64,000 bases of DNA. Origin: Escherichia coli. GTDB taxonomy: Bacteria; Pseudomonadota; Gammaproteobacteria; Enterobacterales; Enterobacteriaceae. The first letter of the stretch is position 1, and every line of letters begins with the position of its first letter. The stretch lies in assembly GCF_024223415.1 (NCBI RefSeq), contig NZ_CP100500.1. The stretch is one strand, 5' to 3'. This document shows, piece by piece, positions 55,682 through 59,746 of the stretch. Made by a program: the position numbers and the translations under genes. A model generated the notes under the pieces. The model was not told where the DNA came from. It did not search any database and was given only the letters and a program-made list of their open reading frames with translations.

Positions 55682-58192
55682 ATGAGCCATCACCACACGC
55701 ACCTGGCGTACCCGTGGAACGCCCCGCTGCCGGTTATTGATCCTGAGACATTCGGCAGAGCATTACCGCAGAAGCCAACCGCATTACAACGGGCAATCCG
55801 TGACTACCTCACCGAAGACATTCGCACTGAGGCCCGGCTGGATGAAGAAACCGTGGCCTTCCTGACAACCACGGACAAAGGTAAGCAAATTAATTCACAC
55901 CTTCACCGGGACGAAGAGCGGCAGATAAGGCTGGATAAGCTGGCACGACACAGACGCGAAAATCCGCCAACGGCGGTATCGGAGGCGATAGCCGAACTTC
56001 GCACCCTGCCCTCGTTTCTTGCCAGTGTGTTGATCCGTGATCTGGCACGACTGAACCGGAAACAGCAAAGTGCCCGCAGTGAAGGTGTAAAAAACAACAG
56101 CGCATACGTGGCCGATAATTTCGTTCGCCGTGGACTGCGTGCGCGCCTGAAACGTATTGAAAGGGTTAACGACCGCTTTGCAACGCCGGCATTCAAAACC
56201 ACCGTCGTGCGCCATCGCCTTGAAGAACTGCTCACACTGCCGCAACTCACCCGTGACGAAATCCAGCGCATCGCCACACTGACAGCCCAGGCATTCGCCG
56301 CAGAATTTGAACGCATATGTGATGAAGTTCTTGAACGGACAGGCAAGGATAATGACAGCCCGGTTATCTGGCTGCTGGCCTACCAGAAGGTGGCACGCAC
56401 AGCCTTAATTCTGGGCGTGGTCCCGCCATACTGGCCGGAACTCGAAATCAGGCACAACCGACGCACACCGCCGGACCCTGAACGGGTTCCGGGTGCGGTA
56501 CTGCGCATCACCTGCGCGACCTGGTGGAACAACCAGTTACGCCACGTCGCCGATCTCTGGCGGGAGGAGTTACTGCGCGCCGCCGGCAGAGTGTCACGTA
56601 AACAATCCCCCTATATCAGCCATGAGTCACTACTGGAGTTCCGCGAGAAGCGCCAGCGCACCCGTGACTTTCTCAAAAGCTGGGATATTGAAAACGAAGA
56701 CGGCGAGCGCCTGAGTCTGGAGGACGTGTACTGGGCTGGCCTGGGTAATCCACGCAACCGCCGCAATGAAATGATGGTCTGCGTCAGAGGGATGGAGATG
56801 GTGGCCGAATTACGGGCTGACGTCGCATTCTTCATCACAGTAACCACCCCTTCCCGCTTTCACAGCGTGAACGAGAACGGCAGCCTGAACCCGAAATACA
56901 ACGGTGCCACAGTACGAGATGCCAGTGATTATCTGGTTTACGACTTCTTCGCAGCCGTAAGAAAAAAAATAAAAAAAGAGGGGCTGGGCTGGTACGGCGT
57001 GCGAACCGCTGAGCCACACCATGACGGCACGCCACACTGGCATATGCTGGTATTCACTTCCCCGGAGAACGCAGAGCGCATCATCGAAATTATGCGCGAA
57101 GCAGCAATTAAATCAGATCGCCACGAACTGGGGGACGATATTTCACCGCGCTTTAAATGCGAGAAGATAGACCCGGAAAAAGGCACACCGGCAAGCTATA
57201 TCGCAACCTATATCGGTAAGAACCTGGACGCCAGCGCTTTCCACAACAATGATCCGAAAACCGGAAAACCTTACGTTGATGAGGAATCCGGGAAAACCAT
57301 GGCGGAAACCGTGGAGAACGCCATTGCCTGGGCAAGCCTTCACCGCATCCGTCAGTTCCAGTTTTTCGGCATTCCGCCCCGCCAGGTATGGCGTGAACTC
57401 CGCCGCCTTGCAAGCCAGATGGAGCGCAACCCGGCATCACCGAAGCACCTCGATCATGACGATATTGACGCCATTATGGCTGCCGCAGATGTGGGATGTT
57501 TTGCCACCTACATCATGAAACAGGGTGGTGTGCTCATTCCGCGCAACCAGTATCTGGTCCGCACCGCATACGAAACCGCAGACGAAGCCAACGACTACGG
57601 TGAATTCCCTCAACGTATCTACGGAATCTGCGCCCCGTCGCTCGGAGAGCGGTACACCATATGCACCCATCCGGACGAGTGGAAACTGGTTAAAAAAGAA
57701 ACAACACCAGACAACCGCACGGGCGAGGGTTTTGACCTTCAGGGCGACCCCGTCGCCCCTTGGACTCGTGGCAATAACTGTCCCCGGGATGAAAAAACAG
57801 ACAATCACGGACCAGAAAACAGGCAGGACCCCGGACGACTGACGCTTCCCGAAGAGAACCTGGAAAGCTGGCTGAATACGTTAAGCAGGGGCGATCGGAG
57901 AAAACTGCGTAATCAGATTAAAAATCAGCCGTCGGGCGCAAAAACCGGACAAAACGACACCACACCGGCATCTGACACCCCTGTAAGGGTGGGGATTGTC
58001 GTGCCTGCGGATACCGCGACGGACACGCAAATCGCCCGCGAACTTGATGCGCTGGGTGTGCAGTTGCCTGACGCGGCCATCATCTCCGTGCGTAACGGTG
58101 CCCGTGTGCGTCTGGATAACGGGGGAACAGCGTACTGGGATGAGTCAGCCCGTCACATCATCACAGAGCAGCCAGTGGAGGCGGGAGCATGA
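55682..58192 (+). CDS. A: P2 gpA-like rolling-circle replication initiator
   Basis: 836 aa; HUH-type motif TPHWHMLVF and paired tyrosines YIATYIGKN; larger than P2 A (~761 aa as I recall). Confidence 0.9.
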   Translation: MSHHHTHLAYPWNAPLPVIDPETFGRALPQKPTALQRAIRDYLTEDIRTEARLDEETVAFLTTTDKGKQINSHLHRDEERQIRLDKLARHRRENPPTAVSEAIAELRTLPSFLASVLIRDLARLNRKQQSARSEGVKNNSAYVADNFVRRGLRARLKRIERVNDRFATPAFKTTVVRHRLEELLTLPQLTRDEIQRIATLTAQAFAAEFERICDEVLERTGKDNDSPVIWLLAYQKVARTALILGVVPPYWPELEIRHNRRTPPDPERVPGAVLRITCATWWNNQLRHVADLWREELLRAAGRVSRKQSPYISHESLLEFREKRQRTRDFLKSWDIENEDGERLSLEDVYWAGLGNPRNRRNEMMVCVRGMEMVAELRADVAFFITVTTPSRFHSVNENGSLNPKYNGATVRDASDYLVYDFFAAVRKKIKKEGLGWYGVRTAEPHHDGTPHWHMLVFTSPENAERIIEIMREAAIKSDRHELGDDISPRFKCEKIDPEKGTPASYIATYIGKNLDASAFHNNDPKTGKPYVDEESGKTMAETVENAIAWASLHRIRQFQFFGIPPRQVWRELRRLASQMERNPASPKHLDHDDIDAIMAAADVGCFATYIMKQGGVLIPRNQYLVRTAYETADEANDYGEFPQRIYGICAPSLGERYTICTHPDEWKLVKKETTPDNRTGEGFDLQGDPVAPWTRGNNCPRDEKTDNHGPENRQDPGRLTLPEENLESWLNTLSRGDRRKLRNQIKNQPSGAKTGQNDTTPASDTPVRVGIVVPADTATDTQIARELDALGVQLPDAAIISVRNGARVRLDNGGTAYWDESARHIITEQPVEAGA

Positions 58193-58620
58193 CGCGATTT
58201 TGCTGCACCATGCAGCGCCCACAGTTTGAGGCCATCATGCGCCAGCGTATGCCGGTGCTGACACTGTTCAGGCCTGCCACAAGGCCACAACCGGGCGACG
58301 AGCTGGAAATCACGATAGTCAGCCCCGATCGCACCACGGAGACCACCATCGCCGACATACTCAACAGGCGGCCGGGCAGCGAGAGCCATAGCTGGACTGT
58401 CGTCATTCGTCCGCGCCGTTCGCCGGAGGAACCGGAGCCGTGCACGCCTGCCGGGAAAATCATGCAGAGATATCACGAAGAGCGGACACGCAGGCACAAC
58501 GGCGGACTGGCCAGAACACTGAACACAGTCAATCACAAGGCCGCGCTGGCGCGAATGGTCTTTTCACCACAACGCAATTCATTCGCCAGACCAGCACAGA
58601 ACGGGAGGAAACAACAGTGA
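58189..58620 (+). CDS. Hypothetical protein, first of five coupled ORFs after A; weak ASCH/PUA-like pattern
   Basis: 143 aa; start ATGA-overlaps A stop, RBS GGAGG; N-terminal pattern F..I......P..T.R.....GDELEI reminiscent of ASCH domains (weak). Confidence 0.55.
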   Translation: MTRFCCTMQRPQFEAIMRQRMPVLTLFRPATRPQPGDELEITIVSPDRTTETTIADILNRRPGSESHSWTVVIRPRRSPEEPEPCTPAGKIMQRYHEERTRRHNGGLARTLNTVNHKAALARMVFSPQRNSFARPAQNGRKQQ

Positions 58621-58811
58621 GCAGAATATTACTTTTTCTGCTGTTTTTCGCGCCATTCGCACAATCAGCCACGCCGAACTGCGTAGCGAAAAAGAGCAAC
58701 ACCGTTGTCATTGTCCAGTGTGATGACGGCACGGTAACAATCACCGACTCGAGCAAAGGAAGCGTCATTGTCTGCCGTAAAGAGAAACCCTGTCAGCGAA
58801 CCGAACTTTGA
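58617..58811 (+). CDS. Small secreted Cys-rich protein (signal peptide + ~42-aa mature part, 4 Cys)
   Basis: GTG start with GTGA overlap and RBS GGGAGG; (M)SRILLFLLFFAPFAQSA/TPNCVAKK...C..C; lies in frame inside longer ORF-track entry 58440..58811. Confidence 0.5.
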   Translation: MSRILLFLLFFAPFAQSATPNCVAKKSNTVVIVQCDDGTVTITDSSKGSVIVCRKEKPCQRTEL

Positions 58812-58822
58812 AGGAAAAATAT

Positions 58823-59137
58823 ATGAACAGGAAACAGAAGCAGGAACTGAAAGGCTTCTTACGTAAAGAAATTGCCAGGCTGGAAGATGTGGAATCTCAG
58901 TCATCAGATATTCCATTCGGAATGGATATCAACGACGCCTGTATGCTCCAGGTATACCGCATAGCTCAGGCTGCACTACAGGCAAAACCGTCAGATGGAC
59001 TGGTTAGAGCAGTACGTTTCTATGAACTGGTAAAGCGTGAGAATCCGCCAGTCGAAACCGGAGCATGGCAAGACGCTGTTGACTGGGTGCTCAAAGAGGC
59101 TTGTCAGGTTGTAAACACTGGCATCAAAGGAGACTGA
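58823..59137 (+). CDS. Hypothetical helical protein
   Basis: ORF track 58808..59137 starts at TTG; ATG at 58823 with AAGGAAAAA upstream preferred (104 aa). Confidence 0.55.
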   Translation: MNRKQKQELKGFLRKEIARLEDVESQSSDIPFGMDINDACMLQVYRIAQAALQAKPSDGLVRAVRFYELVKRENPPVETGAWQDAVDWVLKEACQVVNTGIKGD

Positions 59138-59138
59138 T

Positions 59139-59348
59139 ATGGCTATTGCCGCAAGTTACACCATGCATCTCTATTGTGATTGTCGCCAGTGTACAAATGG
59201 TAAATATCAAACGCCAGACTTCGGTGAATATATCGGTACGTCATGGACTGGCTGTGCAAAAGAGGCGCGTAAGGATGGCTGGCGAATAAGCAAAGACAAA
59301 ACTCGTGCTTTTGCGCCCGGGCATAAAGTTTTGAGGATTAACAAATGA
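59139..59348 (+). CDS. Small zinc-ribbon-like protein (CxCxxC...C)
   Basis: 69 aa, RBS AAAGGAG; MHLYCDCRQCTNGKYQ...GCAKEARKDGW. Confidence 0.6.
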   Translation: MAIAASYTMHLYCDCRQCTNGKYQTPDFGEYIGTSWTGCAKEARKDGWRISKDKTRAFAPGHKVLRINK

Positions 59349-59746
59349 CCACTATAACCAAAGAGCGACTACTGACAATCAGGCAGTGGCGCGAAACATA
59401 CGGACCTGGTAGCAACGTTGTACTGCCAGCCGAAGAAGCGGAAAAACTGGCACGGATTGCTTTGGCATCGCTGGAAGCAAAACCAATAGGTGCTTTCCAC
59501 ATTGCAGAACAGCAGGTCGATGGCACAAGTGACTACATCAAGGATGGGGAGTACCGCTTGCTGACATCTGAAGAACAAAAGATAGCCCAACTTTTAGGCG
59601 ATGCATGGAACCTGTATTTTACATTGCCAGTTGAGCATCCAATGGGTAGAGATGAATTTTGCCGGGCAATTCATCATTGCCAAAATATGGTGTTGGCACG
59701 CCCTGCCATCAGGGCGCTGGCCAGTAAGGGGCAAGGCTATAAATAG
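59345..59746 (+). CDS. Hypothetical protein, last gene of coupled operon
   Basis: 133 aa, ATGA overlap, RBS GAGGA. Confidence 0.6.
   Translation: MTTITKERLLTIRQWRETYGPGSNVVLPAEEAEKLARIALASLEAKPIGAFHIAEQQVDGTSDYIKDGEYRLLTSEEQKIAQLLGDAWNLYFTLPVEHPMGRDEFCRAIHHCQNMVLARPAIRALASKGQGYK

Follow-up and report, generated by a model that had tools for sequence, protein, structure and literature searches.

Five small genes chained to replication gene A in the gpA-gpQ hotspot of a P2-like Escherichia coli prophage

The block at the gpA-gpQ locus

The interval between the replication gene A and the portal gene Q (gpA-gpQ) of P2-like phages is a hotspot of diversity: 1,650 arrangements have been catalogued in 18,150 loci, P2 itself carries old and tin there, and the hotspot is best known for its defence cargo (Rousset 2022, PMC9122126). 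Here we describe this interval in a P2-like prophage of Escherichia coli, using a 64,000-nucleotide (nt) stretch of contig NZ_CP100500.1 (the window, positions counted from its first letter). Our subject is a block of five small open reading frames (ORF1 to ORF5, 58189-59746) that follow gene A on the same strand. We consider it probable that the block is a promoterless, co-oriented extension of the P2-like A operon which fills the hypervariable gpA-gpQ locus with a mosaic of small early proteins.

The window carries a P2-like prophage region and matches the E. coli SCU-115 chromosome with 100% identity; of 5,426 complete E. coli genomes, 21 have the full arrangement. According to the RefSeq annotation, the prophage insertion site adjoins rraA/menA and the gene order runs integrase, helix-turn-helix (HTH) repressor, Cox, small ORFs, a “derepression protein”, a 137-amino-acid (aa) ORF and replication endonuclease A. 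Six hypothetical genes (ORF1 to ORF5 and a further gene, ORF6) lie 3' of A, followed by two genes of the opposite strand, portal Q and terminase P. With A at 55682-58192 (+) and Q at 60807-61862 (-), the block stands between the two genes that delimit the hotspot.

The position of the block on the phage chromosome also matches P2. The ends of the linear record of a related phage, P88_4B11, map to 59828/59829 in the window. This is probably the cohesive (cos) end, with the terminator of the block about 50 nt away, and it puts the block at the far right of the phage chromosome, the position that this locus has in P2. The canonical 19-nt cos sequence of P2, GGCGAGGCGGGGAAAGCAC, was not found with up to three mismatches allowed. 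Directly to the left of 59828/59829, the stretch 59783-59829 contains three TGCACAA repeats (TGCACAAtagTGCACAAatttGCACAAttttttt) and is 97.8% conserved in P88_4B11; it is a candidate for a cos-proximal region that could bind terminase or a host factor.

We compared the interval with that of nine related loci (L003, L005 and L007 to L013), phage P88 and P2, and each had a different gene content. Unlike the defence loci of the hotspot, the block encodes no known defence protein: a PADLOC search with ORF1 to ORF6 recovered no recognisable anti-phage defence system, the best match being ORF3 with E = 0.016 and 12 bits. The block is thus an ordinary, catalogued instance of the P2 gpA-gpQ hotspot with swappable cargo. 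Indeed, the arrangement WP_000196517 + WP_001080487 + ... + WP_000951718 + WP_000086827, six “hypothetical” proteins, is already present in the supplementary table of Rousset 2022 (PMC9122126), and the text of that paper gives no sign of it among the few systems that were cloned and tested. What is new here is the ASCH-fold identity that modelling suggests for the A-coupled gene, the origin of ORF4 and the head of ORF5, junctions included, in lambdoid phages' exo-xis region, and a P4-type RNA leader.

The likeness to P2 extends to the gene next to A. In both phages the block lies between A and Q, next to cos, and the content after the first gene varies among relatives. The first gene itself overlaps A by ATGA, has a GGAG-type Shine-Dalgarno sequence and has an ASCH/DUF3850-type fold, which in ORF1 is modelled. 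P2 orf91 shows the same overlap and is likewise co-oriented with A. In contrast, ORF1 has no detectable sequence similarity to Orf91 or DUF3850, and the cargo here is co-oriented with A and promoterless, whereas P2 tin and old lie on the opposite strand and have their own mapped transcript starts near cosR.

Junctions, transcription signals and the operon leader

Gene A and the elements of the block are as follows.

55682-58192, + strand: gene A, P2-type replication endonuclease of 836 aa (phrog_91, E = 9e-243; “replication endonuclease” in the Prokaryotic Genome Annotation Pipeline, PGAP)
58189-58620, + strand: ORF1, 143 aa, ATGA overlap with A, ASCH/DUF3850-like model
58617-58811, + strand: ORF2, 64 aa, GTG start (phrog_20764, 4e-10; phrog_11462, 1e-8)
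58823-59137, + strand: ORF3, 104 aa, 93% identity to phage P88 gp20
59139-59348, + strand: ORF4, 69 aa (phrog_926, 7e-37)
59345-59746, + strand: ORF5, 133 aa, DUF551/EaA-type head (residues 1-72), C-terminal 62 aa matching phrog_13916
59754-59782, + strand: intrinsic terminator closing the chain, stem of 9 base pairs (bp) and 5-nt loop

An earlier note on this DNA had proposed that the five ORFs are chained to the end of A through ATGA, GTGA, a 1-nt gap and ATGA, that every start has a Shine-Dalgarno sequence, and that an intrinsic terminator at 59755-59781 closes the unit. All of these elements were found in the sequence. The A stop codon (TGA, 58190-58192) overlaps the ORF1 ATG at 58189 to form ATGA, and the ORF1 stop codon (TGA, 58618-58620) overlaps the ORF2 GTG at 58617 to form GTGA. 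The ORF3 stop codon (59135-59137) is separated by 1 nt from the ORF4 ATG at 59139, and the ORF5 ATG at 59345 overlaps the ORF4 stop codon (59346-59348) to form a second ATGA. The junction missing from the note, ORF2/ORF3, is an 11-nt gap between the ORF2 stop codon at 58809-58811 and the ORF3 ATG at 58823. A TTG at 58808, which would have created a TTGA overlap at this point, was rejected as the ORF3 start since it has no Shine-Dalgarno sequence and the homologues begin with MNRKQ, corresponding to ATG 58823.

Shine-Dalgarno sequences precede all five starts by 6-7 nt: GGAGG (58177-58181), GGGAGGA (58603-58609) and GAAGGA (58810-58815) for the first three genes, AAAGGAG (59126-59132) for ORF4 and GAGGA (59333-59337) for ORF5. 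The terminator is formed by a hairpin at 59754-59776 followed by UUUAUUU, with a predicted energy of -15.2 kcal/mol (z = -4.2 compared to shuffled sequences). Overlaps or short gaps at every junction, a Shine-Dalgarno sequence for each start and the lack of a terminator-like site on the + strand inside 58189-59746 together make up the anatomy of a translationally coupled operon. The chaining is real and is not statistically unusual: over the 21 kb of annotated sequence, about 12 pairs of co-oriented neighbours overlap or stand no more than 1 nt apart. The ORFs are real genes because they are conserved, as judged from matches to PHROG families (E-values from 4e-10 to 6e-82 across all five) and from the ratios of nonsynonymous to synonymous substitution rates (dN/dS) given below.

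The earlier note had also reported no separate promoter or LexA box, and our scans agree. A consensus scan detected no promoter-like site of at least 9/12 on the + strand inside 58189-59746, and the LexA box CTGT-N8-ACAG occurs nowhere in the window. A looser scan gave four sites at 8/12 in the block, among them 58711-58741 and 58790-58820, compared to about 5.9 expected from the window-wide density. The Ogr-type motif TGT-N12-ACA is absent from the block and present only upstream of ORF6 and in the P/O intergenic region. The lack of a promoter, LexA box or internal terminator makes read-through from the A operon the best model for expression of the block. Moreover, the five ORFs follow the Orf91 pattern (same strand, no promoter, overlaps) and their lambdoid homologues belong to an early operon, which favours read-through and translational coupling. 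Co-expression with the replication operon, as the note had suggested, is therefore the best-supported model, given the empty scans and the conserved ATGA, and early-lytic timing is a reasonable expectation. Transcription reaching A would run unbroken to the terminator at 59754-59782, and ribosomes would pass from one gene to the next at the stop/start overlaps or short gaps, each with its own Shine-Dalgarno sequence.

In some respects the block resembles a phage moron, being a low-GC (guanine plus cytosine) foreign insert, bounded by a terminator, in an otherwise conserved genome. Unlike morons, it has no autonomous promoter (a terminator and a GC shift are present, and no promoter stands above background), and its genes are chained translationally into the upstream operon.

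Between 55000 and 61000, the highest-scoring match to a sigma-70 promoter (10/12) runs antisense to the block: TTGTCA-16-TATAGT at 59378-59351 (-). It lies inside the 5' end of ORF5, is directed into ORF4 and falls within the cassette common to Shiga toxin (Stx) phages. It could drive an antisense RNA, or it could be a chance occurrence.

If the block is read from the A operon, the beginning of that operon becomes relevant. In the immune state, the CI RNA of P4 and the C4 RNA of P1 block translation of the first gene and cause premature termination of transcription. Upstream of A we found elements of the same kind.

54674-54703, + strand: promoter-like site TTGCCA-18-TACATT, candidate operon start, with a predicted transcription start at about 54710, the 5' end of the isrK match
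54710-54785, + strand: isrK-type leader RNA ending in a hairpin and U-run (Rfam RF01394, 61.9 bits, gathering threshold 50, full length)
54821-54908, + strand: C4 / P4-CI-type antisense RNA with loop UUUCUUCGUUUG (Rfam RF01695, 79.3 bits, gathering threshold 45, full length)
54946-54957, + strand: second copy of CAAACGAAG (54946-54954) with the overlapping Shine-Dalgarno sequence of the epsilon-like gene, predicted target of the C4 loop (read from the sequence)
54967-55194, + strand: epsilon-like “derepression protein” gene, predicted first gene of the operon (PGAP name; 31% identity to P4 epsilon, E = 2e-7)
55263-55676, + strand: 137-aa gene (orf137), ending 5 nt before A (phrog_3237, E = 4e-52; conserved in relatives)

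The promoter-like site and both RNA matches lie in a 320-nt gap before the epsilon-like gene. The isrK hairpin has a predicted energy of -21.3 kcal/mol. The C4 loop CUUCGUUUG is complementary to CAAACGAAG, which is present at 54751-54759, inside the isrK element, and again at 54946-54954, where it overlaps the Shine-Dalgarno sequence AAGAGG of the epsilon-like gene. The leader thus has the C4/CI architecture: a C4 RNA, targets upstream of it and over the first ribosome-binding site, and then an epsilon homologue. In the relatives, Pfam Derepression matches the epsilon-like gene and Pfam Phage_GPA matches gene A.

P4 likewise has both Rfam matches, ordered as here, and epsilon, orf151, orf106 and alpha lie downstream of them. 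Its left operon and the operon here therefore share the succession of isrK-type leader, C4/CI RNA, epsilon-like gene, ORF and replication gene, as well as an antisense loop complementary to one upstream site and one site over the first ribosome-binding site. On the other hand, the replication gene here is the P2-type A and not the alpha primase-helicase, the 137-aa ORF is not similar to orf151, and the element is a full-size P2-like prophage with a C-type repressor and cox; CI-type control of termination is putative here. The leader is conserved in L003 (1115-1312), L007 (2528-2725) and L009 (2507-2704), and it is absent from the early region of P2.

Control of the operon is probably not simple, since it appears to start at a P4-type isrK/C4 leader. 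The operon would begin at about 54710 with an isrK-like RNA followed by a C4/CI antisense RNA, the loop of which could pair over the ribosome-binding site of the epsilon-like antirepressor gene. If the P4/P1 rule holds, the epsilon-like gene, orf137, A and ORF1 to ORF5 would be silent in the lysogen even with an active promoter. To judge from P4 and P1, none of these genes would be expressed in the lysogen, and all would be made during early lytic growth.

Elsewhere in the early region, a 160-aa hypothetical gene at 53375-53857 (-) lies on the opposite strand and breaks the co-oriented series from cox to A, which suggests that the early region comprises more than one transcription unit.

The A-coupled gene and the cassettes behind it

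Homologues of ORF1 overlap the A stop codon by ATGA in all loci examined (L003, L005, L007/8 and L009-13). Where the junction sequence was read (L003, L005, L007 and L009), ATGA and GGAGG are kept while protein identity goes down to about 45%. Pairwise dN/dS for ORF1 ranges from 0.09 to 0.45, which points to purifying selection. Residues M1, R3 and C6 are invariant in the family, and this supports the overlapping start. The family is tiny, with 17 clusters at 90% identity and three clusters among 1.84 billion representative proteins, and tblastn against 50,697 phage records gave no match; by these searches it is an orphan of E. coli prophages.

An AlphaFold (AF2) model of ORF1, built from 12 sequences, reached a mean predicted local distance difference test score (pLDDT) of 82, with values that stay >90 up to residue 60 and have fallen to 84 at residue 76. 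In the model, residues 1-76 form a small beta-barrel that includes one helix; a long helix (87-124) comes next, and the tail is basic and disordered. Many DUF3850 proteins were among the matches when Foldseek was used to compare it with AFDB50, and the modelled barrel is of the PUA-like ASCH type. A profile search of ORF1 against sequences from the Protein Data Bank (PDB) did not return an ASCH protein. P2 Orf91, annotated as DUF3850, is the next gene after A and begins 4 nt before the end of A, at GGAGtggacATGA; ORF1, too, directly follows A and, as in P2, has a start that overlaps the A stop codon. On the strength of the model and the position, we regard ORF1 as the likely positional and structural counterpart of P2 Orf91. 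The modelled ASCH-like fold is the sole functional hint among the five ORFs, and the most likely role of ORF1 would be that of a nucleic-acid-binding accessory of replication or early development.

The slot after ORF1 is filled differently in different relatives. ORF2 begins with a Sec-type, signal-peptide-like N-terminus (MSRILLFLLFFAPFAQS/AT), read by eye and not with a predictor, and its remaining 47 aa contain four Cys residues. It looks like a small exported protein and would act at the envelope. In L003, the same slot (5016-5183) encodes a 55-aa hydrophobic protein that reads as two transmembrane segments. The slot therefore appears to encode a small envelope-directed protein in both lineages examined, and the two proteins are unrelated.

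From about 58650 on, the GC content drops from about 0.60 (the 3' end of A and ORF1) to about 0.47, and behind ORF1 the relatives carry different cargo, toxin-antitoxin pairs among it: DUF6516 with a regulator and an HTH + RelE pair in L005; MarR, TumE and HVO_A0114 in L007; an Ead_Ea22 protein in L009; and the 55-aa hydrophobic protein, DUF7446 and others in L003. P88 has a counterpart of ORF3 (gp20, 93% protein identity) and then jumps from window position 59134 to 59732, straight into the terminator region, which means that 59135-59731, containing ORF4 and ORF5, is an insertion relative to P88. The block thus reads as a mosaic of independently exchanged cassettes and not as one system. The earlier note had treated the five ORFs as one coherent unit; this part of its reading did not stand, since relatives exchange the cargo piecewise after ORF1, with breakpoints at gene boundaries.

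ORF4 and the beginning of ORF5 could be traced to a source. The Stx2-converting phage 86 matches window positions 59126-59484 with 93.6% identity, a stretch that takes in the final codons of ORF3, the whole of ORF4 and 140 nt of ORF5. In that phage the early-left operon contains N, cIII, kil, gam, bet, exo, DUF1382, a ZapA-like gene, a DksA-like zinc-finger gene and an ead/Ea22-like gene (gp47), and 3' of the last of these come a homologue of ORF4, then gp45 (its first 48 residues equal the ORF5 head) and then a DUF551 protein. The homologues of ORF4 and of the 5' part of ORF5 are therefore located downstream of exo in a lambdoid early-left operon. Both junctions, AAAGGAGAnTGAtATG and ATGA, are identical in the Stx phage, so two of the four overlap junctions were imported ready-made with the cassette. 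In all, parts of the region have matches in 211 phage records, most of them from Stx and lambdoid phages, together with P1-like phages. An intact 69-aa homologue of ORF4 (L006, 5014-5223) is left unannotated in the phage 86 record NC_008464, in a gap between gp46 and gp45, which shows that database annotation under-counts the ORF4 family.

ORF4 is widespread in Stx, lambdoid and P1-like phages and has an invariant C13-x-C15-xx-C18 motif that is kept across genera; its model had a pLDDT of 77.6, and a fold search with it gave no match. ORF3 and ORF5 share a different design, a conserved N-terminal head ending in RIAxAALxAKP followed by interchangeable C-termini. The ORF3 head is 57 aa long and is followed by three different C-termini in L003, P88 and the window. 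The ORF5 head occurs on DUF551, EaA and other proteins, and phrog_13916, which matches its C-terminal 62 aa, is a stand-alone 67-aa family.

Of ORF5, PGAP annotates no more than the first 45 codons and labels them a pseudogene fragment. Stx1 phages encode a protein 51% identical over ORF5 residues 1-117; this homologue spans both parts, and therefore the architecture of ORF5 is natural and we judged the pseudogene call to be probably over-cautious. Translation might also start inside ORF5, at a TTG (59558) with GGGGAG in front of it, which could give the 62-aa product called by some annotators. Compared to the closest homologues, dN/dS was 0.14 for ORF3, 0.14 for ORF4 and 0.26 for the ORF5 head, all based on few substitutions, and the exact proteins are found on hundreds to >1,000 contigs.

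Strain GF60 (L004) shows that such genes can be interrupted. Its prophage is otherwise 99.6-99.9% identical and contains an IS21-family element (ISSso4-like istA/istB; L004 positions 1461-3768) in ORF3, at 58897-58902. The matches on its two sides have 6 bp in common, suggestive of target duplication. An insertion in an otherwise identical prophage shows that maintaining the prophage does not require at least part of the block.

Other searches with these proteins were negative. NCBIfam on ORF1 to ORF6 and Pfam-A on ORF1 and ORF3 to ORF6 gave nothing usable, and PDB sequence searches with ORF1, ORF3, ORF4 and ORF5 were empty. Neither ORF3 nor ORF5 matched Ead_Ea22 (PF13935) in Pfam, and BLASTP against two Ead_Ea22 proteins was empty. 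A toxin-antitoxin interpretation of the overlapping small pairs was dropped, as no family match and no toxin-like domain were found.

The comparison with the exo-xis region can be summarized as follows. ORF4 and the first 140 nt of ORF5 share their sequence and both junctions with an Stx2 phage, and ORF3 and ORF5 have the head-plus-variable-C-terminus design of DUF551, EaA and Ea22-like proteins, small early genes in both cases. In contrast, the genes here belong to a P2-type replication operon and not to the pL operon, ORF3 and ORF5 lack Pfam Ead_Ea22, and the characterised orf60a, orf61, orf63, orf73, ea8.5 and ea22 are not present. Passages of the exo-xis literature describe genes of this region as being expressed at the earliest lytic stages and as affecting lysogenisation and induction (PMC8614690, PMC3824215, PMC7093339, PMC10834534, PMC4195576). 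ORF3 to ORF5 would then be cassettes of the lambdoid exo-xis early-left kind, from a region reported to modulate the lysis-lysogeny decision and induction.

The gene that separates the probable cos end from portal Q is ORF6 (60027/60237-60740; phrog_5091). Its true start is likely ATG 60237, which is preceded by AAGAGGA and gives a product of 167 aa. ORF6 stays next to Q where the A-side cargo differs (L004, L005 and L007). An Ogr-type dyad, TGTTGCAGCGACACAACA (TGT-N12-ACA), is located at 59959-59976, about 260 nt upstream of ORF6, and the late region of the prophage has just one other such dyad, between P and O (63679-63696). Possibly ORF6 is a late gene.

Alternative readings and significance

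Several points weigh against reading the block as an extension of the A operon. Co-transcription, timing and every function proposed above are what we infer from sequence. The promoter scans were simple consensus scans, blind to weak, activator-dependent and non-sigma-70 promoters, and Rho-dependent termination inside or after A would escape the terminator scan. The predicted link from the leader to A and ORF1 to ORF5 consists of gene spacing and the lack of + strand terminators. For ORF1, Pfam gave no match even at E <= 10 (PF12961 and PF04266 were sought) and hhalign against Orf91/DUF3850 was not significant (E = 0.33 and 0.24); as no sequence link was found, the relationship to Orf91 is one of fold and position, and the fold comes from a model built on only 12 sequences. 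The IS21 insertion and the PGAP pseudogene call indicate that parts of the block can be lost. Finally, the hotspot is best known for lysogen-expressed defence genes, and a 2026 preprint using machine learning predicts that 15-32% of the unknown proteins in P2 elements are antiviral.

The last point leads to the alternative that survives best, namely that the block or part of it is cargo expressed in the lysogen, a new anti-phage defence or superinfection-exclusion module of the sort typical of this hotspot, transcribed either from a weak or unconventional promoter close to the GC drop (about 58650-58820) or through leaky read-through. Several observations would suit it. The locus is a defence hotspot, and 19% of P2 elements have only unknown genes there according to the same preprint, the source of the antiviral predictions. 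ORF2 to ORF5 have a moron-like low GC content and a terminator, and the weak 8/12 sites at 58711-58741 and 58790-58820 fall in the region in question. The predicted export of ORF2 and the small membrane protein in the L003 slot would fit exclusion at the envelope. However, PADLOC gave no significant match for ORF1 to ORF6, no promoter exceeds the background density, and the genes share the orientation and the chaining of A, whereas P2 tin and old run in the opposite direction from starts of their own. The native context of ORF4 and ORF5, moreover, is a lytic early-left operon. We therefore regard this alternative as unlikely.

Another possibility is that the chain, with the exception of ORF1, is near-neutral lambdoid recombination debris with no role in the prophage and that ORF5 is a chimeric pseudogene. 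The marking of ORF5 as an incomplete fragment by PGAP, the recombination of the ORF3 and ORF5 heads with many C-termini, the IS21 element in ORF3 of GF60, the lack of ORF4 and ORF5 in P88 and the rarity of the full arrangement among complete E. coli genomes are all consistent with it. Nevertheless, all frames are intact and each has a Shine-Dalgarno sequence, dN/dS is 0.14-0.26 against homologues that are about 92-94% identical (again with few substitutions), and identical proteins recur on up to more than a thousand contigs. The Stx1-phage homologue covers ORF5 residues 1-117, and the Cys residues of ORF4 are invariant across genera. We consider debris to be less likely still than defence cargo. 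That the chain is a dedicated counter-defence or host-takeover operon, roles that the earlier note had raised, made up of inhibitors of host restriction or abortive-infection (Abi) systems, in which ORF1 senses or masks modified nucleic acid, is very unlikely: the probable early timing and small, fast-evolving, modular proteins from cassettes common to temperate phage families would suit it, but no similarity to known anti-defence proteins was found, anti-defence genes occur in only 28 of 1,511 P2 elements in DefenseFinder-type surveys, and the exo-xis literature, in the passages drawn on, favours developmental control over anti-defence.

An extension of the A operon that carries exchangeable early genes is thus the reading we prefer, and what seemed to be five genes built as one system is an assembly of exchangeable cassettes, one among the roughly 1,650 arrangements catalogued for the hotspot. 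A bolder proposal goes beyond the present locus. Promoterless, A-coupled chains could be a class of cargo separate from the defence genes expressed in the lysogen, consisting of early-lytic counter-defence cassettes or cassettes for the control of host and development that are shuttled, already translationally coupled, among P2-like, lambdoid and P1-like phages. In the present prophage they would be gated by a P4-type C4/CI antisense RNA, with ASCH-fold ORF1/Orf91 as a conserved nucleic-acid-reading partner of A. We put this forward tentatively, as possible but doubtful. If it is true, the hotspot carries both defence and offence, and the two can be told apart by strand and by the presence of a promoter.

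The P4-type CI/C4 RNA and the epsilon-like antirepressor gene at the head of a P2-like replication operon may be more interesting than the five ORFs themselves. As for ORF1, the gene coupled to A has an ASCH fold in P2 (Orf91) and, according to the model, in the sequence-unrelated lineage described here, which suggests a conserved partner of the rolling-circle initiator. For the hotspot in general, cargo of the early-lytic kind may be distinguishable from defence cargo expressed in the lysogen by its orientation and its lack of a promoter.

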